43,293 bases of DNA, taken from the sequence record PV357169.1; one strand, 5' to 3'. The notes beneath the pieces are model-generated. The model was given only the letters and a program-made list of their open reading frames with translations, searched no databases and was not told the origin of the DNA. This DNA comes from a phage. The position numbers were made by a program, and so were the translations under genes. Shown in pieces: positions 7,453-43,293 of this stretch; positions within the stretch are counted from its first letter, which is position 1; each line of letters starts with the position of its first letter.

Positions 7453-7648
7453 AATTATCACGTACAAAATGCCGCCTAAGAGTATTGTGGTTGGCATTCC
7501 GTTCACTTGGGGATCATGCAGCTTTTGGGTTATAAAGGTAGAGGGTGGCTACATATACCGTCTGGACGATGGACGGAAGGTGGATGTACCCGAAAGAGAC
7601 ATTTTATTGTGTGGAATAGTATACGCTAACAGAATCGAGATTAAGTAA
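7445..7648 (+). CDS. Hypothetical protein (67 aa)
   Basis: AAGGGGA RBS; overlapping stop/start with neighbours. Confidence 0.5.
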   Translation: MHKIITYKMPPKSIVVGIPFTWGSCSFWVIKVEGGYIYRLDDGRKVDVPERDILLCGIVYANRIEIK

Positions 7649-8439
7649 TGGACCAGCCCTGGCTTAGAGCGTGCAAGCGCCTGGCCGTGGGGCAGAGGGC
7701 ACGCTTTCGGTGCTGCGGCAGGGACTCCGCCGGGGTGCTCTATAATAACCCGGATGCCTGGGAATACTATTGCCACCGCTGCAAACAGGTAGGCAAGGAG
7801 CGCAAGCAGTACCAGCGCATACAGTTACAGGAAGAGCCGAGGGTGCAGCCCTCTGCACCTGCAGATGCAATTTGCATTAGCCAAGCGCCTGCAGAAACGC
7901 AGAGTTTTATTTACGGATTCCTTGCTTCAAAGGGAATCATGCCTGAAATGGTGGGGGATGCAGAATGGAGCAAAGAGAAACAGCGGATAATCTTCCGTGT
8001 CGGAAGCGCTGCTCTGGGCCGTGCAGTACATGCTCGGCAGCAACCGAAGTGGGTAATGTACGGCCAGCCAATAGCTTTCGCTGTCGCGGAACCTGCCGTA
8101 GCACCGGCTGTAGCTGCGGGCGCTCCTCTAAAGGTCGTGCTCACAGAGGACTTACTCTCAGCCCTGAAGATACAGCACGCAGTTACGAGCTACAGTGCGT
8201 TGAACGTGCAGGCTATAGCTATGCTGGGTACACGCTTGCCCACGCAGCTAAGGGCCTGGCTGATTCAGAATCGCCCGGAAGTGATTCTAATGTTGGACAA
8301 TGACCCGGCAGGACATGCTGGGGTAGCGGCAACACGCCGGGCACTGCGCCCGTTCATGCAGTGCCGAGAACACTACTTCGCTGCGGATCCTAAGGACGCA
8401 GAAATCAAAGAGATACTGGAGGCATTAACTTGGACTTAA
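7648..8439 (+). CDS. DNA primase (zinc-ribbon + TOPRIM)
   Basis: CCGRDSAG...YYCHRCKQ zinc-binding pattern; acidic TOPRIM motifs LTEDLL and MLDNDPAG. Confidence 0.7.
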   Translation: MDQPWLRACKRLAVGQRARFRCCGRDSAGVLYNNPDAWEYYCHRCKQVGKERKQYQRIQLQEEPRVQPSAPADAICISQAPAETQSFIYGFLASKGIMPEMVGDAEWSKEKQRIIFRVGSAALGRAVHARQQPKWVMYGQPIAFAVAEPAVAPAVAAGAPLKVVLTEDLLSALKIQHAVTSYSALNVQAIAMLGTRLPTQLRAWLIQNRPEVILMLDNDPAGHAGVAATRRALRPFMQCREHYFAADPKDAEIKEILEALTWT

Positions 8440-9710
8440 TAGTTGTGCGTGCAATGTGCACGCAGAAGGTCTGGAACCGACTGCGAGAGCAGATACCCAA
8501 GTCTATGCTTGCGCCGGACACCTCGAACCTGCTGGACTGGGTAGGGCTGTACTGGAACACGTACCCAGAGCACCAAGAGGTGCAGTGGGATGCGATGCAG
8601 AGTATGCTCAACCTCCGGGCCGGGCATCTATCCCGTGAAGAGCGGGTGATTATGGATGAGCTTATGCGGGGAGTACAAGCCGTACCACAGGATTCTGTGG
8701 TGGGGATTGTGCAGACCCTGAATGAGTTGGCATACAGCGGAGAGGTTGCAGCGCTCACGCAGCGCTACCAAGACGGTGAGGAGGTTGATTATCTACTGGA
8801 GATGAAGCACCTCCAGCGCAAGTACGGGGATGGTGCTGCTGTTCATGATTCGCTACTAGAGTGGGAGAGCGGAAGTGTTGATGAGATACTTGCCGCGACT
8901 GATGAAAGTGGTGGTCTTAAACTGGGCGTATTTGAGCAACTCTCTAATAGCATCCGCGGGCTTCGCGGTGGTGATTGTATTGCTGTGGCTGCCCCTGTTG
9001 ATTCTGGTAAAACTAGCCTACTCGCTGCTATTGCTGTGGACTTTGCTAAGCAGATGCAGCAGCAACCGGAGGTGTACGGGGATCGTCCGATTCTATGGCT
9101 GGTTAATGAAGGCCCGGCGACGCGCACTGTGCCGAGGGTATACCAAGCGGCGCTGCATTGGACTCTGGCTGAGATTAAGGACAGGCACAGTAAGCAAGAG
9201 TTTGTGCCGGCCTATTTGGAGAAAGTAGGTAGGGCTGACCGCATCCGTATCAAGGCGGCACACTCTCTTACTATGGCTCAAATCTCTACGCTAATGGAGG
9301 AGATGCGCCCGGCGGTAATCATCATAGATATGGTAGCTAACATCCGTGGTGGTACGATGGAGAGCGAACACCAGAACCTAGAGGCGAAGTGGCAGGAGCT
9401 GCGAATCCTGGGGTGTGAGAATGACTGTGCCGTTATTGGTACTATGCAGCTTTCACTCGAAGGTTATAACCTGCTGTTTCCACCGCTCACAGCAATGAAG
9501 CAGAGTAAGATTGGTGTGCAAGGTGCTTTGGATTTAGCAATTATGATGGGGTGCTTGGACAGGAACGAGCAGCCGCATATGCAAAACATTCGTGGTATCA
9601 GTACGCCGAAGAATAAGATGGCGCTATCGGGTAAGGAATCGCTACTGCAATTCGAGGTAGCATTCGACCCAGGTAGATGCCGATTTAACGAAGGGCAGAT
9701 TAACAAGTGA
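8430..9710 (+). CDS. Replicative DNA helicase (DnaB/T7 gp4 C-terminal-like)
   Basis: Walker A AAPVDSGKTSLL; directly follows the primase; probable TTG start with GGAGG RBS. Confidence 0.75.
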   Translation: MDLIVVRAMCTQKVWNRLREQIPKSMLAPDTSNLLDWVGLYWNTYPEHQEVQWDAMQSMLNLRAGHLSREERVIMDELMRGVQAVPQDSVVGIVQTLNELAYSGEVAALTQRYQDGEEVDYLLEMKHLQRKYGDGAAVHDSLLEWESGSVDEILAATDESGGLKLGVFEQLSNSIRGLRGGDCIAVAAPVDSGKTSLLAAIAVDFAKQMQQQPEVYGDRPILWLVNEGPATRTVPRVYQAALHWTLAEIKDRHSKQEFVPAYLEKVGRADRIRIKAAHSLTMAQISTLMEEMRPAVIIIDMVANIRGGTMESEHQNLEAKWQELRILGCENDCAVIGTMQLSLEGYNLLFPPLTAMKQSKIGVQGALDLAIMMGCLDRNEQPHMQNIRGISTPKNKMALSGKESLLQFEVAFDPGRCRFNEGQINK

Positions 9711-9713
9711 CTT

Positions 9714-9745
9714 CCCTAGCGCCTTCCTAGAGGGCGCTATGTAGG
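9714..9745 (+). promoter_or_regulatory. Conserved stem-loop element C (CCCTAGCGCC...GGCGCTATGTAGG)
   Basis: 7-bp stem TAGCGCC/GGCGCTA; related to elements A and B; sits just after the helicase gene. Confidence 0.4.
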
Positions 9746-9772
9746 TACACAGATGATGGATGGAGATATACT

Positions 9773-9871
9773 ATGTTTATACTGACAGACTGGGAGTGCA
9801 AGCACTGCGGGGCAAGGTTGACATTTATAGGTGGTATGTGCATCCAGTGTGGGAGAAGGCAGAATGCTTAA
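9773..9871 (+). CDS. Small zinc-ribbon-like protein (32 aa; CKHC...CIQC)
   Basis: GGAG RBS 8 nt upstream; two CxxC pairs; below the ORF-track cutoff. Confidence 0.35.
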   Translation: MFILTDWECKHCGARLTFIGGMCIQCGRRQNA

Positions 9872-10019
9872 ACCGTCCGACATTAACTATCTCGACGAAG
9901 AGGTAATTAAGGCGTACGCTGCATCTGTGGGTACTTTCAGCATACGGCCCGTGCTAATTAGCAGCCGGCTGATTGTGCACTTGGCTGTCAATAAGGCGCG
10001 GAGGATTAATTGGAGATGA
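9864..10019 (+). CDS. Hypothetical protein (51 aa)
   Basis: Internal ATG of track ORF 9831-10019 with GGAGAAGG RBS. Confidence 0.35.
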   Translation: MLKPSDINYLDEEVIKAYAASVGTFSIRPVLISSRLIVHLAVNKARRINWR

Positions 10020-10465
10020 CAGATTGTATCGACCACGGGCAGAAGGGAAGCACTTGCCGAGGAAAGTGCGCTGGATATGGCCGCTCCAGATTTGATGGAG
10101 AGACAACTGGAAGCCACCGCAAAGCGTATTGTATAGCCCACAACTTGAAGCTGAGTGATATCGCGGGACTTGTAGTCCGGCATTCGTGTGACAATCCTCG
10201 GTGCATAAATCCGGAGCACCTGCTACTAGGGACTTCTAGTGATAATATGCAGGACCGAAATAAAGGTGCGCGTAATTTGCTGGGCAGCCGCAACCCTGCT
10301 GCCAGACTTACCCCAGAAGACGTGCACAGTATACGAGAAGCATATGCTGGCGGTGAGACCCAGGTATCTATAGCGAGACGCTTCGGGATAAGTCAAGGAT
10401 ACATATCTAATATCATAAAGGGGAGGGTATGGAATGAGCAGAAGCATCCTGATAACGGATTATGA
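10010..10465 (+). CDS. HNH homing endonuclease (copy 1)
   Basis: HSCDNPRCINPEHLLLGT HNH core; paralog of 13155-13589; 3' end overlaps the DNA polymerase start by 32 nt. Confidence 0.8.
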   Translation: MEMTDCIDHGQKGSTCRGKCAGYGRSRFDGETTGSHRKAYCIAHNLKLSDIAGLVVRHSCDNPRCINPEHLLLGTSSDNMQDRNKGARNLLGSRNPAARLTPEDVHSIREAYAGGETQVSIARRFGISQGYISNIIKGRVWNEQKHPDNGL

Positions 10466-12773
10466 GACGCAAAATCACCCATATTACGGTAGTGTTGCTT
10501 CCCCGTACTGTCCGGATAATTACATCGTAGAATCAGCGTGGCGTATTGACCGCACGCACGATGACGGTACGGTAGAAGTAGGCCCCGTAGAGAGTGTACG
10601 GTATAACAGTCGCGCGCACTTTGAAGCGGCACCTGTATCAGAATGGCTCCCAATACCAGCTGACTGTTGGCTGATTGTGGCCCACAACGCCGCATATGAG
10701 ATTAGCTGGTTCCTAACCTTTGCGCGCGCCGAGTTTGAGGCCTTCCTAAAGCGGGGAGGTCGCGTATTCTGTACGATGCATTCTGAGTACATCGCCTCGG
10801 ACTTTCAGAGTATGTATCCGTCACTGGACGAGACAGCTCCTAAGTACGGCGGTACGCACAAAGTAGACGGTGTTAAGATTCTATGGGAGCAAGGTGTATT
10901 AACCTCCCAGATCGACCCTATACTATTGCACGACTACCTAGTTAACGGGGATATACCGAACACGGCCCTGTGCTTCTACGGCCAGTGCGGTATCTTTGCA
11001 GAGCGCAACCAAATGCAGTACGTATGGGAGCGCATGGATGCCTTACTGGCCTGGGCCTACTGCGAATGGTTCGGTCTGTTCGTGAATATGCCGATTGCTC
11101 GCAAGAACCAAGAAGAGCAGGAACAGCGTATACTGGAGATTAAGAAGGAGCTGCAGCAGTATATCCCCAAGGACTTGCCGGAGACGCTAGATTTCAACTT
11201 CGGTTCTGACTTTCATATGTCTGCGCTGGTGTATGGCGGCCCTATCAAGTACCGCAAGAAGGTGCCCTACGACCCGCCGCAATACGTCAAGGCGGACTAC
11301 TGGCAAGTAGGCGACACTTGGGTTGCTGTGGATGATATGCCCGCTCCCCCTGGGGCGACTACATACAAGGCCGGGAAGAACAAGGGCTTACCAAAAGTCT
11401 TCCGCATAGATACAGCGGAAGAGAAACTCAAATGGGAAGAGGACCTCTACTTCTGCCCAGGCCTGGTTAACATCCAAGAACTGCCCGAGGTACTCCGAGA
11501 GAAGTATGCTGAGCGTGGAGAGTTCAGGCAAGCCCGGAATCTGCAGGATGGGACACCAATCTACAGCACCAGTACTGATGCTATGGAAGCGCTAGCCCGT
11601 CACGGGTTCGAGTTCTGTCGATTGGTGAACGAGCTAGGTGCTCTGGAGAAGGACACAGGAACCTACTATCTACGAACGGAGTACAACGAAGATGGGTCAG
11701 TTAAAAAGACCTCGGGCATGCTTCAATACGTCATACCTCAGAACCCTGATGGTTCAGGTATTATCCACCACCGTCTTAACACCTGTGCCACCGTCACCGG
11801 GCGACTGTCAGGTTCTAACCCGAATCTCCAGAATCTACCGCGCGATGGGACGAGCCGGGTTAAACAGATGTTCACCTCTCGTTTCGGAGAATCTGGTCGC
11901 ATCACTGAGGTTGACTATTCGGCCCTGGAAGTGGTTATGTCTTGTGTTCACACTGGAGACCTTAAACTACTGGGGCTACTGCAGTCCGGCACGGACATGC
12001 ACTGTTACCGACTAGCATTTAAGGAGAACAAAACCTACGAAGAGATGTACGACCTGTGCCATAACGCTGACGGGCCAGACTACAAGTACTGGAAGCAGCA
12101 GCGTACGGACATTAAGCCCCCTAGTTTTGCTGCGCAGTATGGTGCTACGGCTAAGGGTATCGCCTTTGCTACCGGATGTACCGTAGAGTATGCACAGGCG
12201 TTCCTGGATAACGAGGCTAAGCTGTTCCCAACAACCATAGGATTCCGCGCTGTTGTCAAGGAAGAAGTAGAGCGTACCGGGGCAGCTGGACGCATTTACC
12301 GGGAGCAAGCTGATGATGGTAGTTATCGTATCTACCGAATTGGTACCTGGACCAGCCCAGCAGGTGCCCGCTACAGCTTCCGTCAGAAGGAGCAGTGGAA
12401 GGAAGTAGTCCCTGGCCAGCGCAAGCAGAAGGTGATGGACTACAAGGAAACCGAGATGGCTAACTACTGGTGTCAAGGTGAGGCGTTCTTCTTGATGGCA
12501 GTCGCAGCCGGTATGGTTCTGCGTGCGATGCTGGCACGTGACTGGTTCGACAATCAGGTGTGCTTGATTACGAACGTACACGATGCATTGTATCTTGACA
12601 GTGCCAATCCAGAGGTAGGCAGAGAAGCGAGCCTGTTAGTTAAGCAGTGCATGGAAGACGCACCTAAGCGTATCCACCAGCTATGGCCTAACTACGGTAT
12701 CATTGGGCAGGTCCCGTTCCCAGCGGAAGCTGAAATGGGTACAAGCATGTACAGTAAGGAGAAAGTAGAATGA
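10434..12773 (+). CDS. DNA polymerase, family A (T7 gp5-like)
   Basis: Motif A EVDYSALE, motif B K...FAAQYG, motif C VHDALYLD; N-terminal exonuclease-like region. Confidence 0.9.
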   Translation: MSRSILITDYETQNHPYYGSVASPYCPDNYIVESAWRIDRTHDDGTVEVGPVESVRYNSRAHFEAAPVSEWLPIPADCWLIVAHNAAYEISWFLTFARAEFEAFLKRGGRVFCTMHSEYIASDFQSMYPSLDETAPKYGGTHKVDGVKILWEQGVLTSQIDPILLHDYLVNGDIPNTALCFYGQCGIFAERNQMQYVWERMDALLAWAYCEWFGLFVNMPIARKNQEEQEQRILEIKKELQQYIPKDLPETLDFNFGSDFHMSALVYGGPIKYRKKVPYDPPQYVKADYWQVGDTWVAVDDMPAPPGATTYKAGKNKGLPKVFRIDTAEEKLKWEEDLYFCPGLVNIQELPEVLREKYAERGEFRQARNLQDGTPIYSTSTDAMEALARHGFEFCRLVNELGALEKDTGTYYLRTEYNEDGSVKKTSGMLQYVIPQNPDGSGIIHHRLNTCATVTGRLSGSNPNLQNLPRDGTSRVKQMFTSRFGESGRITEVDYSALEVVMSCVHTGDLKLLGLLQSGTDMHCYRLAFKENKTYEEMYDLCHNADGPDYKYWKQQRTDIKPPSFAAQYGATAKGIAFATGCTVEYAQAFLDNEAKLFPTTIGFRAVVKEEVERTGAAGRIYREQADDGSYRIYRIGTWTSPAGARYSFRQKEQWKEVVPGQRKQKVMDYKETEMANYWCQGEAFFLMAVAAGMVLRAMLARDWFDNQVCLITNVHDALYLDSANPEVGREASLLVKQCMEDAPKRIHQLWPNYGIIGQVPFPAEAEMGTSMYSKEKVE

Positions 12774-12991
12774 CTATTAAACCAGGTAGTATTGTGGAGA
12801 TACTAGGACTTGGGCCGGAACCATTAGAACCTAGACACCGTGATTACTTTGCACCTGGCACTCAGCATCGTGTGATATCTTATGATCCTGAACTCTGGGA
12901 GGTGGAATTAATCAATCCAGATAACAACTCAGAGAAGCCTGGGGATGGTATTACCTTCTTCTCTGGAGAGTACAAACTTATCGTGGAGTGA
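12770..12991 (+). CDS. Hypothetical protein (73 aa)
   Basis: ATGA coupling to the DNA polymerase gene. Confidence 0.5.
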   Translation: MTIKPGSIVEILGLGPEPLEPRHRDYFAPGTQHRVISYDPELWEVELINPDNNSEKPGDGITFFSGEYKLIVE

Positions 12992-13114
12992 TGATATAGG
13001 TGGACCCTTGGGTGGTGTAGGGGGTTAGGGTAGCATGAGAATTAGCTAGGGTCAAGCAGATAATTAATTAAAATTATTTGTTGACTCTGACTTGATTCTG
13101 TGATTTACCGAGAA

Positions 13115-13134
13115 TTAATGTGATACGAGTAGGA
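13115..13134 (+). promoter_or_regulatory. Variant copy of the conserved motif (TTAATGTGATACGAGTAGGA)
   Basis: 16/19 identity to the 21259 copy; 20 nt upstream of the HNH copy 2 start. Confidence 0.3.
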
Positions 13135-13154
13135 ACAACATAAGAGGATACCAA

Positions 13155-13589
13155 ATGTCGATGTGCATTGACCATGGGTATACCAAATGCCTTAATAAGA
13201 ACGGGTACCGCCGGGCATGGTATAAGCCAACTAAACAATTGGAGCTTCTGCACCGGGTGGTGTACGCTGAGCATAACGGGATAGACATAAGGGCAATGGC
13301 CGGGCTGTCTGTTAGACACACCTGCGATAACCCTAGGTGCATTAATCCAGAGCACTTAGTGCTAGGGACGCACTTGGATAATATGAATGACCGTGCGGAA
13401 CGTGGAAGGAACCCAGATGTACGGGGAGAGCGAAACCCAAAAGCACTGCTATCTTGGGACGCCGTGCGGGATATTAGGGCCAACTATGTCCCGTACAAGA
13501 AAGGTATGCGGCAACACTTTGCTAATAAGTATGGTGTGGGTGTACATGTAATCAGTGACGTGATAAGTAACAGGAGCTGGAATGCCTAA
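13155..13589 (+). CDS. HNH homing endonuclease (copy 2)
   Basis: RHTCDNPRCINPEHLVLGT HNH core; AAGAGGA RBS. Confidence 0.8.
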   Translation: MSMCIDHGYTKCLNKNGYRRAWYKPTKQLELLHRVVYAEHNGIDIRAMAGLSVRHTCDNPRCINPEHLVLGTHLDNMNDRAERGRNPDVRGERNPKALLSWDAVRDIRANYVPYKKGMRQHFANKYGVGVHVISDVISNRSWNA

Positions 13590-14562
13590 GTTAAACACAA
13601 TCAAGCTATTCACCAAAGAGCAGCACGTAGATATCCTAAGCAAGCACAGCTCTAACGTGGACGCTGCAGCCGCCTACAACAAGCTGGCAGGACTAGCTGA
13701 GCCGGTGGTGTACCGCCAGATGGTGAAGTACTGGCGCAGCATCTTCCTAGACCACAATGGTAGCAAGGGTAAGGCAGTATCTCACATGAAGGAGGCACTA
13801 AAGCTCATACAGCCTAGCCCCACTGATGACATCGGTAAAACCTTCGTACCGGAAGTATGCCACCGTATTCTCGTTGTCGGTGATCTGCATGCCCCCTATA
13901 CTCACGTAGATGCCATGGACTTCCTAAAAAGTGTGCGGGATGAATACTGTCCTGACATGGTGGTACAGGTTGGTGATGAGACGGACGGCCACGCTATATC
14001 ATTCCACGAAAGTAACCCGAACCTAGACAGTGCCGGGGTGGAACTGGAGAAAGCTAAGCTAGTGCTGGAGGAGCTGCATGAACTATTCCCGAACCTTCTT
14101 GTTTGCGATTCCAATCACGGGAGTCTTGTATATCGCCGCGCCAAGGCTCACGGCTTACCAGTTCAATTTATTAAGCGATACCGGGACATTCTATTCCCCG
14201 AGCATAGTGCTCCAGGTTGGTCGTGGGCCGATGCTTGGGTGCTTAGTACACCTCTCGGGCCCGTCCGGTTTCAACATCAGGTTAGCGGCGACTTCATGCT
14301 TAACGCGAGCCACGAGAGAACGTCGCTCGTTTTGGGGCATGAACATGGGCGCTTCGAAGTACAATATGCGGCTTCTTCTACGGCACTGTATTTTGGCGCA
14401 TATGCAGGGTGCCTGATTGACCGCAAGAGCATGGCCTTTGCTTACGGCAGACTCACCCGTAAGAAACCAATCCTGGGTGTACTGGTAATCACGGAGGGTT
14501 GTCCCCAGTTAATTCCGATGTTACTTGACGACAATGGTCGTTGGGTTGGTCGTTCTAAATAA
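13582..14562 (+). CDS. Calcineurin-like metallophosphoesterase (putative nuclease/phosphatase)
   Basis: Signature order GDLHAP, GDETDGH, DSNHG, GHEHG. Confidence 0.7.
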   Translation: MPKLNTIKLFTKEQHVDILSKHSSNVDAAAAYNKLAGLAEPVVYRQMVKYWRSIFLDHNGSKGKAVSHMKEALKLIQPSPTDDIGKTFVPEVCHRILVVGDLHAPYTHVDAMDFLKSVRDEYCPDMVVQVGDETDGHAISFHESNPNLDSAGVELEKAKLVLEELHELFPNLLVCDSNHGSLVYRRAKAHGLPVQFIKRYRDILFPEHSAPGWSWADAWVLSTPLGPVRFQHQVSGDFMLNASHERTSLVLGHEHGRFEVQYAASSTALYFGAYAGCLIDRKSMAFAYGRLTRKKPILGVLVITEGCPQLIPMLLDDNGRWVGRSK

Positions 14563-14575
14563 TATAGAGGTGATG

Positions 14576-14743
14576 ATGAAAATGGAAATCTGTTCTATAC
14601 TGGGTCTTATCTTTGTAACTCTGAAACTGACCGGCGTTGTCGCCTGGTCTTGGTTGTGGGTGCTGCTCCCGTTCTGGGGGCCTTTAGTGATCTGCCTGTT
14701 AGTAGTGCTCATTCTATTGGGTCTTAAGGCCTTAGCCAGCTAA
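14576..14743 (+). CDS. Small membrane protein, two predicted TM helices (~55 aa)
   Basis: Strongly hydrophobic ORF; several in-frame starts (14570-14582) after a GAGG RBS. Confidence 0.4.
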   Translation: MKMEICSILGLIFVTLKLTGVVAWSWLWVLLPFWGPLVICLLVVLILLGLKALAS

Positions 14744-14794
14744 GCCCTGCATCTGCACGTAAATATTATTTGAACTAAACGAGGACATAATTAT

Positions 14795-15655
14795 ATGACT
14801 ATGAATGCACTGGATACTCTGAACTCCCTGGTTGCTGCCGCGATTGAAACCCAAGAAGTTGATATGACTGAGACTGCCCAGGGTGGTGCGTACGAAGATG
14901 TACTGCTGCCGAAGGGTGAGTACTACGGTTACTTTACTGAGTACGTGGAAATTGGTAAGCGCCTGCCGACTAAAGGTGGTAAGCCTACCGGTAAGCCTGC
15001 CGCGGCGAACGTTCGCATCGGGATTGTGGTGTACGGCCCGAACGGTGAGGTGAAGCGTATCCGTCCGTATCCGATGACTATCAGCAACTTTGAGCGTGCG
15101 GGCTTCAAGAAGTTCTTCGACAAGCTCAACTATGATGGTAGCATTAAGCACGCTGCGCAGCGACTGGGACAGGCGTTTGTGTTCCCGGTGGACGAGCACA
15201 CCAGCGCAGCGGGTAAGAAGTCCAACATCGTAGACCTCGCAGCAATCCGTCCGATTCCTAAGTTCGACCCAAATACCGGCGAGCCAATTAAAATGCCTGA
15301 GCTGGATGCTTCCGAGATTAAGCTGTTCTTGTGGAACAATCCGACCAAAGAAACCTGGGATAGCTTGTATATCGAAGGGACCAAGGATGATGGTAAGAGT
15401 AAAAACTGGATTCAGGAAGACATGTACAAGGCTGTTGACTTCCCAGGCAGTGCGTTGGATATTATGCTGAATGCTGGTTCGGTTCCGAGTCCTCAGTCTA
15501 TGCAGGCCCCGGCTGCTCCTGCAGCCCCCGCAGCCCCCGCAGCCCCAGCCACCCCGGCTGCGCCCACTGCACCAGCGGCACCGAGTGCTCCAGTAGCACC
15601 AGCAGCACCAGTGGCTCCAGCGGCTCCTGTAGCGCCTGCTGCACCGCAAGCCTAA
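14795..15655 (+). CDS. Hypothetical protein with C-terminal (PAAPA)n low-complexity tail
   Basis: GAGGA RBS; residues ~240-286 are almost pure Pro/Ala repeats. Confidence 0.65.
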   Translation: MTMNALDTLNSLVAAAIETQEVDMTETAQGGAYEDVLLPKGEYYGYFTEYVEIGKRLPTKGGKPTGKPAAANVRIGIVVYGPNGEVKRIRPYPMTISNFERAGFKKFFDKLNYDGSIKHAAQRLGQAFVFPVDEHTSAAGKKSNIVDLAAIRPIPKFDPNTGEPIKMPELDASEIKLFLWNNPTKETWDSLYIEGTKDDGKSKNWIQEDMYKAVDFPGSALDIMLNAGSVPSPQSMQAPAAPAAPAAPAAPATPAAPTAPAAPSAPVAPAAPVAPAAPVAPAAPQA

Positions 15656-21252: not shown

Positions 21253-21258
21253 AATTTA

Positions 21259-21275
21259 ATGTTACAGGAGTAGGA
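21259..21275 (+). promoter_or_regulatory. Copy 2 of conserved motif ATGTTACAGGAGTAGGA, abutting the first post-RNAP gene
   Basis: Exact 17-mer (20-mer TTAATGTTACAGGAGTAGGA shared with copy 3); at the replication/structural module boundary. Confidence 0.45.
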
Positions 21276-32099: not shown

Positions 32100-35000
32100 A
32101 TGGCTCAGTTTCTGAACCAAGAACCGAATCCACAGGAAAAGGATTCTGCTAAGGGCGCAACACTTAAACCTGCGCCTGCGCGTATAGATTGGAACGATGC
32201 GGGTGATGACGGCTTGAATGCACTGGAGCGTGCCTCCTTACTAGCACAGGCCAAGACTCCTGCTACTACAGCTGCAGAGAGCTTTGCGTCTGGTATGGGT
32301 AATAGCATCATAGCTGCAGCTATCCGTAAAGCCTCCGCCCCGGCATTTGTCCCAGAGCAGGGTTTTGATGCTAAGAAGCAATTAAGCACTGATTCACGGG
32401 CTAAACTCTATACCCCTAATCAAGAAGAAATTGATTACTTACATGGAGCAGTGTCTCTGGAGGACTATAACTACCGCATACAGCAGATGCTTGATCAGCG
32501 TCATCGCGATCGCTTAATGGCTGACAACACAATAGCTGGGTTCGCTGGGGCTATAGCAGGTGACTCTCCATTTCTCCTAGCTCCGATGTCTGCGGCAGGT
32601 ATCGCTGGTCGGGCTGGCTTAGCAGTGCGCACTGCTATCCGCGCAGCGGATGTAGGTACGGCTGTTTATGCACAGGACCAACTGGGTCAGTCTGCGGCAG
32701 TTACTGCTCTTGTAGCAGGTGTAGCTGGTCTAGACCAACTCTGGGATATCCGTAGGGCTGTACGCGCATCTACGGCAGCTGCGTCAACTACAAGAGCTGC
32801 TGAGACCACCCCTAATGCTGCTACGGCAACTTCCCGCACTGCTCCGGAAGAAGTAGCAACAAGTCGCAATGTGGTAGATTCCCCTGCTGGCCCGTCTAAT
32901 GCGCAAGCTGATAGTGCTGCGGTTGCTAAAACCACTGACGGTTTACCAGAAGGTTTAAGCTTGAACGTGCTGGATGATGTAGAGCACCACGCTTACTCTG
33001 GTGTACGCGTACCTGGTATAGAGGTAGAAGTAAATCGCGGAGATAAGTTGGTTGGTGTTGTGCAGGCTTATCGTGTAGGTGATGATTTACAAGTAGCACA
33101 TGCCTGGGTTGATAAATCCCTGCGTGGCAAGGGAGTAGGTGCGAGCATGTACAAAGCACTAGTTAAGCGCGCTACTGATGCAGGATATGGTAACTTGTTG
33201 TCTGATAACTCAGTAACTGCGTCTGCTCAGCAGATGTGGCGCAAACTTGGTGCTACCAAAACCAAAGATTTTAAAGAACTAACGGACGGTATTGAAGGGC
33301 AGCGTTATGCAGTCTCTGCGGATGAAAAGTCCCCACTCTTTACTCTAGACTTGAAACGTCCTGTGTTTGACCCAGATGCGCCTACAACTCGTACAGCGAG
33401 GGATGTTAATGTTACAGGAGTAGGAGAGGGGGAAGAAATCCTCACCAAAGCACTGGATGAACCGATAAAAGTCCTTAGAAACAACACTACTACTGTTAAC
33501 ATTAAAGCGCAGGACGTAGTTCGATTCCTAAAGACCTCTGAGCATTTATCTAAGGGTCAGAAGGCTATCCTGGACACCCTGGGCGATGCAGTACAGGACA
33601 TTGATTTTAAGTTGGTGGCAGGCTCTTCTAACCGTAGCCACTACAGCTTTCCACTGGTATCAAGAACTGATAGGGGTTTTGTATCTTTACGTGCCCCTAA
33701 GAAAGCTAATGGAAGTACTTGGACAACTGTAGGCGACGCCCTACGTGCCATGGACGCCGATACTAGTCGAGTAGCAGTGCACGAGCTGATTCACGCTGCC
33801 ACTACTAGGGCCCTTAAGCGGAATCCTGAAATTGCTAGTAAGCTGGAAGAGGTGCGCGCTGCAATAGCAGCTGATTCAACCCTCAGTGATAAGCTTAAGT
33901 ACTACGCAAGCGATGTGCACGAGATGCTAGCTGGACTAGGTGATAGCCCTGAGTGGGTGGAGTATCTCTCTAAAACTCAATCTCCTACTGGTAGGAGTAT
34001 GCTCCGCCAGATTGGTGAGTACATCATGAATGCCCTGGGGATTCGCACCAAGGGGTCCGCTCTGGAGGATGTTCTGGACGCGTACGAGGATGCTGTCAAG
34101 TGGACAGCAAAGGACTACGCAGAACAAGTTCAGAGCTTCCGCAGCGAATCTTTCCAGGACCTAGCGGATACATCGGTTAAGAATGAGGCCCTGAAAGCTC
34201 AGACTATGATGGACACGGCCAAGCGTAAGTTAGCCACTATGTTCTCCCTGTATGATAACATCGCAGAGGGTAGCGAGGACCTGGCACGCTTACTGGTATC
34301 TGATGCTACTGCTGTAGGCGGTCGTAAACCGTCTGTGGTGGACTTCAAGCGTAACCTTACGTTGGAGATGGATGCTAGTGCCAGTGTAGTTGAGGACGCT
34401 ATACTTGGTGCCCTCAAGGCCAAAGGTGTAGGTTTCATAGACCGCTTCTTCCACCGTAGCAACTTCCGAGCAGCTCGTGCTGACTTAGAAGATCGCTTGG
34501 GCCGTTACCTGGACTCTGCGTACAGCGCTGAGGTTAATGGACGCCCTGTACCTCTGCCGGACTCTGACTTGGTTCCGCTAGTAGAGGCGTACCGCAACTC
34601 CGGCTGGGCCAGTAAGTGGCACGATCACATGACTGCTGCCGGACTGGTGGATGACGGTACTCTGATTAAATCGGACTATTACTTCCCTCGCCAGTACAGC
34701 TACGATAAGATGCGCCAAGGTATTGCAAATGGTCGCTCCCTGGATAATTATCGGGATCTGTTCCGTCAGGCATTGCGTGACGTGTACCCGTCTATGGAAC
34801 CCGAAGTTGTCCAGCGCGTTGCTAAGGAGATGGTTGACGGTATCTATAACGGACGCTCCTCGGCTTCTGGTCCTATGTGGAAGCAACTCATCAATGGTAT
34901 GGGTAATGATGAAGTAGTTATGGCCATGCGTAATGCTGGCGTAGACGAGAGTGCAATCCAGAGTTTCTTGGCAGGTAATGTCCGAGAATCTGGCGCTACC

Positions 35001-43045: not shown

Positions 43046-43293
43046 ATGAACGAAATGTTCTCACAAGATGGTAAAGGTTCAACGGGAATCTTAACTAATA
43101 AACAAGCAGTGGCTCGACACTTCGGAGTTAAGCAATCAGAGGTTGTTTACTTCTCAGTGGGTGCTCTGCTTGCTGGTTACAAAGTCATCTATGACAAAGT
43201 GACACAGCGTGCTTACTCATTACCTGCTGATATTGGTTCTGGGGTTACTGTTGTAAGCCTTAGTCCTGCCGGAGTATTAGTACACTCTGCCGG
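43046..43293 (+). CDS. 5' part of the junction-spanning gene (continues at 1-314 after removing the 91-nt overlap)
   Basis: ATG with GAGG RBS; the ORF runs off the end of the window. Confidence 0.5.
   Translation, partial: MNEMFSQDGKGSTGILTNKQAVARHFGVKQSEVVYFSVGALLAGYKVIYDKVTQRAYSLPADIGSGVTVVSLSPAGVLVHSA
43203..43293 (+). repeat. 91-nt exact duplicate of window positions 1-91 (circular-assembly overlap)
   Basis: Seen directly; identical base for base. Confidence 0.95.

Follow-up and report, generated by a model that had tools for sequence, protein, structure and literature searches.

The free-standing homing endonuclease genes of phages follow a described paradigm of intergenic location, a cleavage site distant from the insertion site, and co-conversion (PMC2988022, PMC2790892). 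MobE of phage T4, an HNH enzyme encoded between nrdA and nrdB, is intergenic and sporadic and mobilises its flanks by co-conversion (PMC2790892, PMC2988022). SegF and SegG of T4 follow the same logic, with experimentally mapped cleavage sites in a neighbouring conserved gene away from the insertion site, variable co-conversion tracts and local marker exclusion (PMC2988022); their catalytic domain is of the GIY-YIG type and not HNH. In Drulisvirus papers, homing endonucleases have been recorded solely as present or absent (PMC7013548).

In the present study, we analysed two HNH genes, HNH1 and HNH2, in a stretch of 43,293 nucleotides (PV357169.1), called here the window, which is the complete genome of a KP34-like (Drulisvirus), Klebsiella-type podophage. 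Like MobE, both genes are intergenic, sporadic and associated with co-converted flanks, and the logic proposed for them is that of SegF and SegG. The regulatory context of MobE is its own, comprising an internal terminator and a promoter downstream, whereas HNH1 and HNH2 occupy the position of the start codon and ribosome-binding site (RBS) of the downstream gene and overlap that gene; the activity of MobE has been demonstrated, and that of HNH1 and HNH2 is predicted. By sequence, the closest named relative was gp7.7 of phage T7 (34% identity, 97% of the length, E 9e-12, tblastn with HNH2 as query), a protein of the same size and the same layout of HNH_3 and helix-turn-helix (HTH) domains from an Autographiviridae genome. 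Gp7.7, to which T7-group HNH proteins such as gp5.3 are related, differs in genomic location, and to our knowledge neither mobility nor a target has been established for it. I-HmuI of Bacillus phage SPO1 (PDB 1u3e) differs in being an intron-encoded nicking enzyme, with 18% sequence identity. The His-Cys box enzyme I-PpoI has in common with our proteins a cysteine- and histidine-rich His-Me finger, with a Pfam zf-His_Me_endon (PF05551) match at the zinc-binding loop, but it is eukaryotic, intron-encoded and dimeric and has no HTH domain. HNH1 and HNH2, relatives of T7 gp7.7, are elements of a known kind and do not represent a new type of system. The features of the region are as follows.

9864..10019, + strand: conserved small gene of 51 aa (PHROG 4548), 5' of HNH1; its stop codon, TGA, overlaps the ATG of HNH1 as ATGA
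10016..10465, + strand: HNH1, 149 aa, predicted free-standing HNH (His-Me finger) endonuclease with a C-terminal HTH domain
10420..10427, + strand: putative RBS of pol, GGGGAGGG, within the 3' end of HNH1 (from reading the sequence and the empty-site alignment)
10434..12773, + strand: family A DNA polymerase gene (pol), 779 aa (Pfam DNA_pol_A, 93.9 bits)
10434..10870, + strand: 5' tract of pol travelling with HNH1 (from informative-site types)
12770..12991, + strand: conserved gene of 73 aa (PHROG 6862), between pol and the HNH2 region
13115..13134, + strand: variant copy of a repeated motif, TTAATGTTACAGGAGTAGGA, putative promoter of a phage RNA polymerase (RNAP)
13155..13589, + strand: HNH2, 144 aa, predicted free-standing HNH endonuclease, paralog of HNH1 (from Pfam matches and the junction alignment)
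13582..14562, + strand: metallophosphoesterase gene (mpe), 326 aa, ATG start
13582..14016, + strand: 5' tract of mpe travelling with HNH2 (from informative-site types)

An earlier note, made from the sequence alone, had described two paralogous HNH genes at 10010-10465 and 13155-13589. Both ORFs exist there, with a correction to the first: TTG 10010 is the mechanical ORF start, and the likely start of HNH1 is ATG 10016, because this ATG and the stop of the 51-aa gene overlap as ATGA and the GenBank orthologs are annotated with this start. The paralogy was borne out by an alignment over the full length (41% identity, BLASTP E 2e-32) that includes the common core CDNPRCINPEHL(L/V)LGT, and no third HNH paralog was found in the window by tblastn. 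As the note had proposed, both are HNH proteins. HNH1 and HNH2 scored 30.3 and 39.7 bits against Pfam HNH_3 (PF13392, gathering cutoff 24.8 bits), and both matched PHROG HNH families at about 1e-25 (for HNH1, PHROG 6254 at 1e-25). Additional Pfam matches were to Sigma70_r4/HTH families in HNH1 and to zf-His_Me_endon in HNH2 (28.3 bits). In an alignment of 59 homologs, C4, H56, C58, N60, C63, H68, N77 and D80 were invariant, and all of them are kept in both proteins; they presumably serve as the catalytic histidine, the Asn/Asp metal ligands and the Cys/His zinc ligands. The AF2 model of HNH1 had a pLDDT of 88.8, and the top Foldseek matches were to I-PpoI and weak (E 0.04, TM about 0.28). A sequence search of solved structures with HNH1 gave no nuclease relative and only weak matches, mostly HTH proteins at the C-terminal region. 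These results suggest a layout with an N-terminal zinc-stabilised His-Me finger nuclease and a C-terminal HTH DNA-binding domain. The dN/dS of HNH1 orthologs against the window copy was 0.07-0.12 and that of HNH2 orthologs 0.05-0.09 at dS of about 0.7-1.3, and in these diverged ortholog pairs (0.05-0.12 overall) both ORFs are under strong purifying selection.

On the map, HNH1 (end 10465) overlaps the start of pol (10434) by the 32 nt that had been noticed before. HNH2 had been placed immediately 3' of pol, which is not the case, as the 73-aa ORF (12770-12991) and an intergenic region of 163 nt lie between them. The 73-aa gene belongs to the backbone, with 99% identity to the closest relative, KPV811. 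Thus, that the two genes bracket pol is acceptable as a loose description of the map, but each is the 5' neighbour of a different conserved gene, and the idea that both flanks of one conserved target gene were invaded does not hold, since HNH2 is apart from pol and tied instead to mpe. Both HNH genes are separate ORFs at gene boundaries, outside any intron, and lie in the replication module, HNH1 translationally coupled to pol and HNH2 to mpe.

The insertion junctions are precise. HNH1 is placed exactly at the start codon of pol and HNH2 exactly at that of mpe, and alignments with HNH-less genomes make clean empty sites and a take-over of the RBS visible. In HNH1-less relatives, the same ATGA junction joins the stop of the 51-aa gene to the start of pol. 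According to the junction alignment, HNH2 separates the RBS of mpe, AAGAGGA (13142-13148), from the mpe start codon, and in KPV811, which has no HNH2, mpe starts with TTG directly after this shared RBS. HNH2 overlaps the mpe start (13582) by 8 nt and contains the new mpe RBS AGGAG (13572-13576). HNH1 uses the RBS of pol and HNH2 that of mpe, and each brings a replacement RBS for the downstream gene; with this RBS and an ATG inside the 3' end of the HNH gene, the downstream gene is therefore still translated.

The variant motif copy upstream of HNH2 was also found as described, at 13115-13134 (TTAATGTGATACGAGTAGGA). It is one of four copies, the others being at 1054, 21256 and 33406, and this family surfaced only in a repeat search; with 13110-13139 as query and up to 3 mismatches, the sole match was the query itself. 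The motif is part of the backbone, because it is identical in HNH2-less KPV811. It is probably a phage-RNAP promoter, which in genomes without HNH2 would directly serve mpe. A scan of 9600-13800 for sigma-70 promoters and intrinsic terminators gave none above chance, and an Rfam scan of 9000-15000 gave no intron and no other RNA. An intron-encoded HNH of the I-HmuI type was rejected, as this interval holds no group I intron. A packaging cofactor of the terminase-associated HK97 gp74 type was rejected as well, on the position in the replication module (helicase, pol, mpe) and the lack of the genes in most relatives.

KPV811 has about 96% backbone identity to the window (95-99%) and carries neither HNH1 nor HNH2. 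Among 268 related GenBank records, HNH1 was present in 29 (about 11%) and HNH2 in 14 by megablast, or about 17 (about 6%) when more divergent copies are counted, and only IK_ECO1 and RMN1 have both. The two genes are distributed independently, with different associated genes. In relatives, these intergenic sites and those next to them hold many further HNH lineages, several of which have their own pol 5' allele. Separately, a group I intron unrelated to HNH1 and HNH2 was observed inside pol of two relatives (L056 and L060).

The tract transferred with each HNH gene reaches downstream from it, into the 5' end of pol for HNH1 and of mpe for HNH2. Among the HNH1 carriers, HNH1 itself is about 95% identical; over the first 467 nt of pol the identity is 96-99%, and over the rest of pol it is 78-89% except in two closely related pairs (94% and 98%). 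The nearest backbone neighbour of each carrier is without HNH1, save for one pair of carriers, L005 and L006, which are mutually nearest (98%) and followed by the HNH1-less L058 (97-98%). To these HNH1-less neighbours, the rest of pol is 94-99% identical for most carriers (only 86% for L002), but the pol 5' tract just 62-70%. The window has an unbroken series of 129 informative sites (10438-10847) that are all of the HNH1-carrier type; the switch to the KPV811 type falls between 10847 and 10892, and the block of strong divergence reaches to about 10793. In at least five backbones, the tract always begins at HNH1 and extends one way with variable length, its end varying by backbone (about 10870, 11090, 11140, 11235, 11260 and 11285). 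These differing breakpoints therefore point to several conversion events that were independent of each other. Of the GenBank records, 30 had the carrier-type 5' allele of pol, namely the 29 HNH1 carriers and one record whose first base already lies within pol. The divergence of the carrier from the naive allele is uninterrupted over pol nt 1-360, and the N-terminal segment of 120 codons in carriers, which spans the Exo I region (D-x-E kept), has many amino-acid changes and a 4-codon deletion.

The 5' end of mpe showed a corresponding tract. The carrier-type allele was at least 83.7% identical in 17 records, with the next best record at 68.5%; carrier and naive alleles differ continuously over mpe nt 1-440, and the N-terminus linked to HNH2 has an 18-residue indel. 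In the window the mpe tract is patchy, being of the carrier type at 13582-13856, of the KPV811 type at 13881-13943, of the carrier type again at 13965-14016, and of the KPV811 type from 14025. For both elements, the HNH gene and the flanking allele are associated in an essentially 1:1 manner over about 270 genomes. Mobility, which the earlier note had proposed to check against related genomes, is strongly supported: both genes are absent from KPV811 and sporadic elsewhere, and the flanking tracts conflict with the backbone phylogeny. With an HNH domain also detected, the idea of mobile HNH genes withstood the refutation that the note itself had set. Overall, the original observation was real and partly confirmed, and its interpretation was partly supported.

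We consider, with a probability of roughly 80%, that HNH1 and HNH2 belong to one HNH_3 lineage and are free-standing homing endonuclease genes independent of each other, with nuclease activity and cleavage sites predicted from these comparisons. In a mixed infection with an element-less relative, the nuclease would cut or nick the naive allele not more than a few hundred bases into the downstream gene, and the break would be repaired from the carrier genome. Such repair would copy the HNH gene together with a variable length of the 5' end of the adjacent gene (co-conversion). The 5' stretch of the carrier itself would escape cutting because it is strongly diverged, which would make the carrier allele immune. 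On this basis, the cleavage sites are expected in pol nt 1-460 and mpe nt 1-440, or upstream of these segments.

The HNH genes could instead be inactive or non-specific and simply ride ordinary homologous recombination among co-infecting Drulisvirus, the tracts being general mosaicism. The whole helicase-pol-mpe region is mosaic, with varied small inserts at four intergenic sites, some of them non-nuclease, and divergent flanking blocks could stem from modular recombination between distant lineages. A separate point against homing is that one HNH lineage at site B in relatives (L028 and L029) is not tied to a distinct pol allele. We nevertheless judge the passenger reading unlikely, since a high-identity tract that always starts from the HNH gene and runs in one direction for variable lengths, an allele association close to 1:1, the repeated occupation of the same sites by different HNH lineages, and strong purifying selection with all conserved family residues kept, including the presumed catalytic ones, all argue against a mere passenger. 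That the ancestor of the genus already had both genes, with precise deletion in most lineages, was rejected as extremely improbable. The clean empty sites (the ATGA overlap, and a start codon directly behind the RBS) could in principle reflect precise deletions, but vertical descent with loss predicts divergence at the level of the backbone and no variable tract ends. Element and flank are far more similar among carriers than their backbones, which reach just 78-89%, and the nearest backbone relative of most carriers is without the gene.

The strong conservation could also be read as domestication, with the HNH proteins kept for the benefit of the phage and mobility secondary or lost; possible benefits are the exclusion of rivals through cutting of pol or mpe, degradation of host DNA, or nicking in replication or repair. 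HNH2 orthologs that are intact at dS up to 1.3 would fit a long-retained, beneficial gene, as would the coupling of both genes to essential or conserved genes of the replication module, and for T-even phages, marker exclusion caused by homing endonucleases has been described (PMC2988022). Against this, each gene is missing from about 90-95% of the close relatives, among them KPV811, which is nearly isogenic, and therefore neither is needed for growth; at least one copy, that of L005, is frameshifted, and competitive exclusion is the same mechanism as homing. We regard domestication as quite improbable. Returning to homing, the HNH1 cassette would swap a divergent polymerase N-terminus and the HNH2 cassette that of mpe. 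It is a doubtful extension that homing endonucleases act here as a means of exchanging functional domains in essential replication proteins, with chimeras like BUCT86 keeping the DNA-binding half linked to the protected allele.

The locus offers a clean natural example, in which about 270 relatives display a near-perfect link of each nuclease gene with a downstream gene whose 5' segment has diverged. The variable ends of the conversion tracts narrow the probable location of the cleavage sites to a few hundred bases, and homing assays can therefore be designed directly. The genus concerned, Klebsiella Drulisvirus, is in therapeutic use, and the local mosaicism is created in pol, which is a frequent phylogenetic marker; the shifted start codons and RBSs of the neighbouring genes also affect annotation. 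The horizontal spread of each nuclease gene together with the start of its downstream gene is clear yet ordinary phage biology.

The window, 43,293 bases long, holds a complete podophage genome whose major genes are all on the plus strand. An identical stretch of 91 nt stands at both ends (1-91 and 43203-43293) and by its sequence indicates a full genome with a direct terminal repeat. The region of interest has ~95% identity to Klebsiella phage KPV811, the closest relative, and 83-88% identity to numerous other genomes of the genus Drulisvirus (KP34-like, Autographiviridae). Its genes are arranged as follows.

Features from the primase to the metallophosphoesterase gene
7648-8439, plus strand, primase
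8430-9710, plus strand, DnaB-type helicase, next after the primase
9864-10019, plus strand, 51-aa gene, between helicase and HNH1
10016-10465, plus strand, HNH1 (149 aa), between the 51-aa gene and pol
10434-12773, plus strand, family A DNA polymerase gene (pol), after HNH1
12770-12991, plus strand, 73-aa gene, after pol
163 nt, spacer between the 73-aa gene and HNH2
13155-13589, plus strand, HNH2 (144 aa), between the spacer and mpe
13582-14562, plus strand, metallophosphoesterase gene (mpe), after HNH2

Directly after the helicase stop there is an inverted repeat (TAGCGCC...GGCGCTA, 9706-9737), nearly invariant in relatives whichever inserts come after it, which may be a signal for transcript processing or termination. 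Between this hairpin and the 51-aa gene lies a 111-nt insertion (9753-9863), missing in KPV811, IK_ECO1, Minorna and most relatives and ~90% identical in two related loci (L032 and L035); its 32-aa mini-ORF (9773-9871) carries CxxC...CxxC, is zinc-ribbon-like and runs into the 5' end of the 51-aa gene. The motif TTAATGTTACAGGAGTAGGA occurs in four copies in the window, two exact and two variant (1054-1073, 13115-13134, 21256-21275 and 33406-33425), and is probably the promoter consensus of the phage RNA polymerase. The variant copy noted earlier in front of HNH2, at 13115, is one of these four; it is backbone sequence, conserved in genomes without HNH2 and identical in one of them, KPV811.

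The observation of two HNH genes around the polymerase gene was largely correct. HNH1 and HNH2 are indeed paralogous (41% identity over the full length, E 2e-32), and in the profile search both proteins exceeded the Pfam HNH_3 gathering score; HNH2 additionally exceeded that of zf-His_Me_endon, and helix-turn-helix matches were obtained at the C-terminus of HNH1. A third paralog was sought in the window and was not found. The database search gave 87 homologs, nearly all with HNH_3, and ten residues were invariant in a 59-sequence alignment (C4, H56, C58, N60, C63, H68, L69, G72, N77 and D80), all of which are kept in both window proteins. The AlphaFold model built from this homolog alignment was confident (pLDDT 88.8) and predicts a strand-rich N-terminal domain bearing the motif helix and a three-helix C-terminal domain. 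The dN/dS was 0.07-0.12 for HNH1 of the window against its orthologs and 0.05-0.09 for HNH2 pairs (dS 0.2-1.3); therefore, both proteins are maintained by selection. The ORFs exist and end as described, and the 32-nt overlap of HNH1 with the pol start is correct, but HNH1 does not begin at 10010: ATG 10016, the equivalent of the start annotated in HNH1 orthologs, overlaps the stop codon of the 51-aa gene in an ATGA, and TTG 10010 is probably not used. HNH2, which had been placed immediately 3' of pol, lies 381 nt past the pol stop, with the 73-aa gene and the spacer in between, and its last 8 nt are shared with the start of mpe.

The comparison of relatives at these junctions, proposed in the earlier note, revealed genomes with (carriers) and without (non-carriers) each gene. 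Both are present in IK_ECO1 and RMN1, Minorna has HNH2 alone and KPV811 has neither. By megablast, 29 of the 268 GenBank phage records matching the region hold HNH1 and 14 hold HNH2, and the HNH2-type locus rises to ~17 records once the divergent copies of Minorna and phage 6995 are counted. In a second sample, 77 IMG/VR loci retrieved by using the polymerase, orthologs were found in 5 (HNH1) and 3 (HNH2). The HNH1 ortholog of the metagenomic contig L005 (2518-2965) is split by a frameshift, which could be decay or a sequencing error.

In HNH1-empty genomes, the pol start overlaps the stop of the 51-aa gene (GGAAATGACAACC). HNH1 of the carriers starts at that same ATGA, and pol starts 418 nt further downstream, behind a GGGGAGGG RBS inside HNH1. 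Genomes without HNH2 read ...CATAAGAGAGGCAACCC-TTG-GCT..., where mpe starts at the TTG behind its RBS. The sequence in carriers is ...CATAAGAGGATACCAA-ATG-TCG...; HNH2 occupies the mpe start position, and mpe restarts at an ATG behind AGGAG in the 3' end of HNH2. The mpe N-termini are homologous (MPKLNTIKLFTKEQH vs MAKVSLIKLFTKEQH). Therefore, each element takes the translation-initiation position of the downstream gene and supplies a replacement.

HNH1 carriers are 95-96% identical to the window in HNH1, 98-100% in 10434-10652 and 96-97% in 10653-10900, but over the remaining part of pol the value falls to 81-84%. In 10434-10652, non-carriers without exception have 62-80%; KPV811 is unalignable there, 84% identical in 10653-10900 and 96% in the rest of pol. 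In pairwise comparison, carriers share 96-99% identity over the first 467 nt of pol and 78-89% over the remainder, except that two pairs of close relatives reach 94% and 98% there. Every HNH1 carrier has a non-carrier as its nearest backbone neighbour, except for L005 and L006, a near-identical pair, and identity to this neighbour in the rest of pol is mostly 94-99% (86% in L002). At informative sites, those distinguishing KPV811 from the carrier consensus, the window has the carrier state 129 times in a row (10438-10847) and is KPV811-type from 10892. The same analysis of other carriers, each against its own neighbour, placed breakpoints near 11064-11111, 11087-11195, 11231-11237, 11252-11264 and 11285, with no clear breakpoint in L053; these differing positions therefore imply several independent transfer events with unequal tract lengths. 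Carrier and naive (KPV811-type) pol consensus differ continuously across 10434-10793, a 12-nt indel included, and are then almost identical; thus, the mobile unit is HNH1 plus the diverged first 120 pol codons. The carrier-type segment occurs in 30 GenBank records, exactly the 29 HNH1 carriers and one record starting inside pol, and one cluster of pol 5' alleles is made up solely of HNH1 carriers. Two further HNH lineages at the insertion site in relatives (site B) are each confined to their own allele cluster, the cluster of an AP2-type HNH lineage also contains loci without a detected insert ORF, and one HNH lineage is not specific to an allele. Within 10016-10810, the window differs from other carriers mostly in the 5' two-thirds of HNH1 (~5%), and differences almost vanish over ~10390-10810 (0.2-1%); thus, the 3' end of HNH1 and pol codons 1-125 are more conserved than the nuclease gene. 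Chimeric HNH genes stand at the equivalent site in OL474125 (BUCT86) and PQ663821 (KpV17Sklif), HNH1-like only in the 3' ~60%, the DNA-binding half (~96%), and the carrier-type pol 5' allele is still present in both. This arrangement suggests that the nuclease domain was shuffled, with the DNA-binding half staying tied to the flanking allele.

HNH2 follows a similar pattern, yet looks older. Within HNH2, carriers have 82-95% identity to the window; over mpe nt 1-300, they are 82-92% identical to each other (100% for one near-identical pair) and non-carriers have 56-65%. The nearest backbone neighbours of HNH2 carriers are often non-carriers. The window mpe is carrier-type in 13582-13856, KPV811-type in 13881-13943, carrier-type again in 13965-14016 and KPV811-type thereafter, and the two consensus sequences differ as far as ~14020. 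In GenBank, the carrier-type segment is bimodal (at least 83.7% in 17 records, next best 68.5%).

Published genome descriptions record that homing endonuclease genes vary among Drulisvirus and related PhiM1-like phages, notably near the genes for primase, helicase and polymerase (PMC7013548, PMC6115819). In Drulisvirus, the replication module is a hot spot of small inserts. The helicase/51-aa gene, 51-aa gene/pol, pol/73-aa gene and 73-aa gene/mpe boundaries, with compact empty states of ~55, -1, -1 and ~164 nt, hold many different inserts across relatives (L005-L081), including at least 7 lineages of CDNPRCINPEHL-type HNH, the type of HNH1 and HNH2, and several DH-I-N-R...DN-R (AP2-type) HNH genes. 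Other inserts are a 238-aa ORF, several 60-120-aa ORFs and a 182-aa ORF, which may be the 'nucleotidyltransferase' annotated here in one GenBank relative. Some HNH ORFs start with the first nine pol codons (L071 2544-2981, opening with TTSIMHID) or finish with the last sixteen (L018 3932-4411 and L019 5357-5836, closing with AEAEMGTSMYSKEKVE), and these fusions indicate that insertion or recombination took place in the terminal parts of the pol coding sequence. In L056 (4706-4914) and L060 (4703-4911), pol contains a group I intron (Rfam RF00028, 70.6 bits), near window-equivalent 12040-12160; an Rfam scan of 9000-15000 in the window showed none. L053 and L063 have a ~650-nt insertion at this place, possibly a group I intron with an ORF, and their pol spans ~3.0 kb.

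In T-even phages, free-standing homing endonuclease genes are intergenic and sporadically distributed, the enzymes cleave at a distant site in a conserved neighbour, and the sequence lying in between is co-converted (PMC2988022, PMC2790892). The pattern of HNH1 and HNH2 fits these defining comparative features. Passive hitch-hiking of the HNH genes on general recombination is disfavoured, as the comparative data speak against it; they likewise speak against a domesticated, beneficial role and against ancestral presence followed by loss, so that both of these readings are disfavoured as well. The mobility proposed in the earlier note is well supported by the sporadic presence and the co-transferred flanking tracts, but its picture of one target gene invaded on both flanks is not supported, since HNH1 goes with pol and HNH2 with mpe. 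On these comparative grounds, we conclude that HNH1 and HNH2 are two independent free-standing homing endonuclease genes, linked to pol and mpe respectively; for both we infer that the enzyme is active, where it cleaves and that the carrier allele is immune. They are a known kind of element, with orthologs already annotated in public records as HNH or homing endonucleases. Their main value lies in a natural record of co-conversion of unusual clarity, which sets bounds on the likely target sites.
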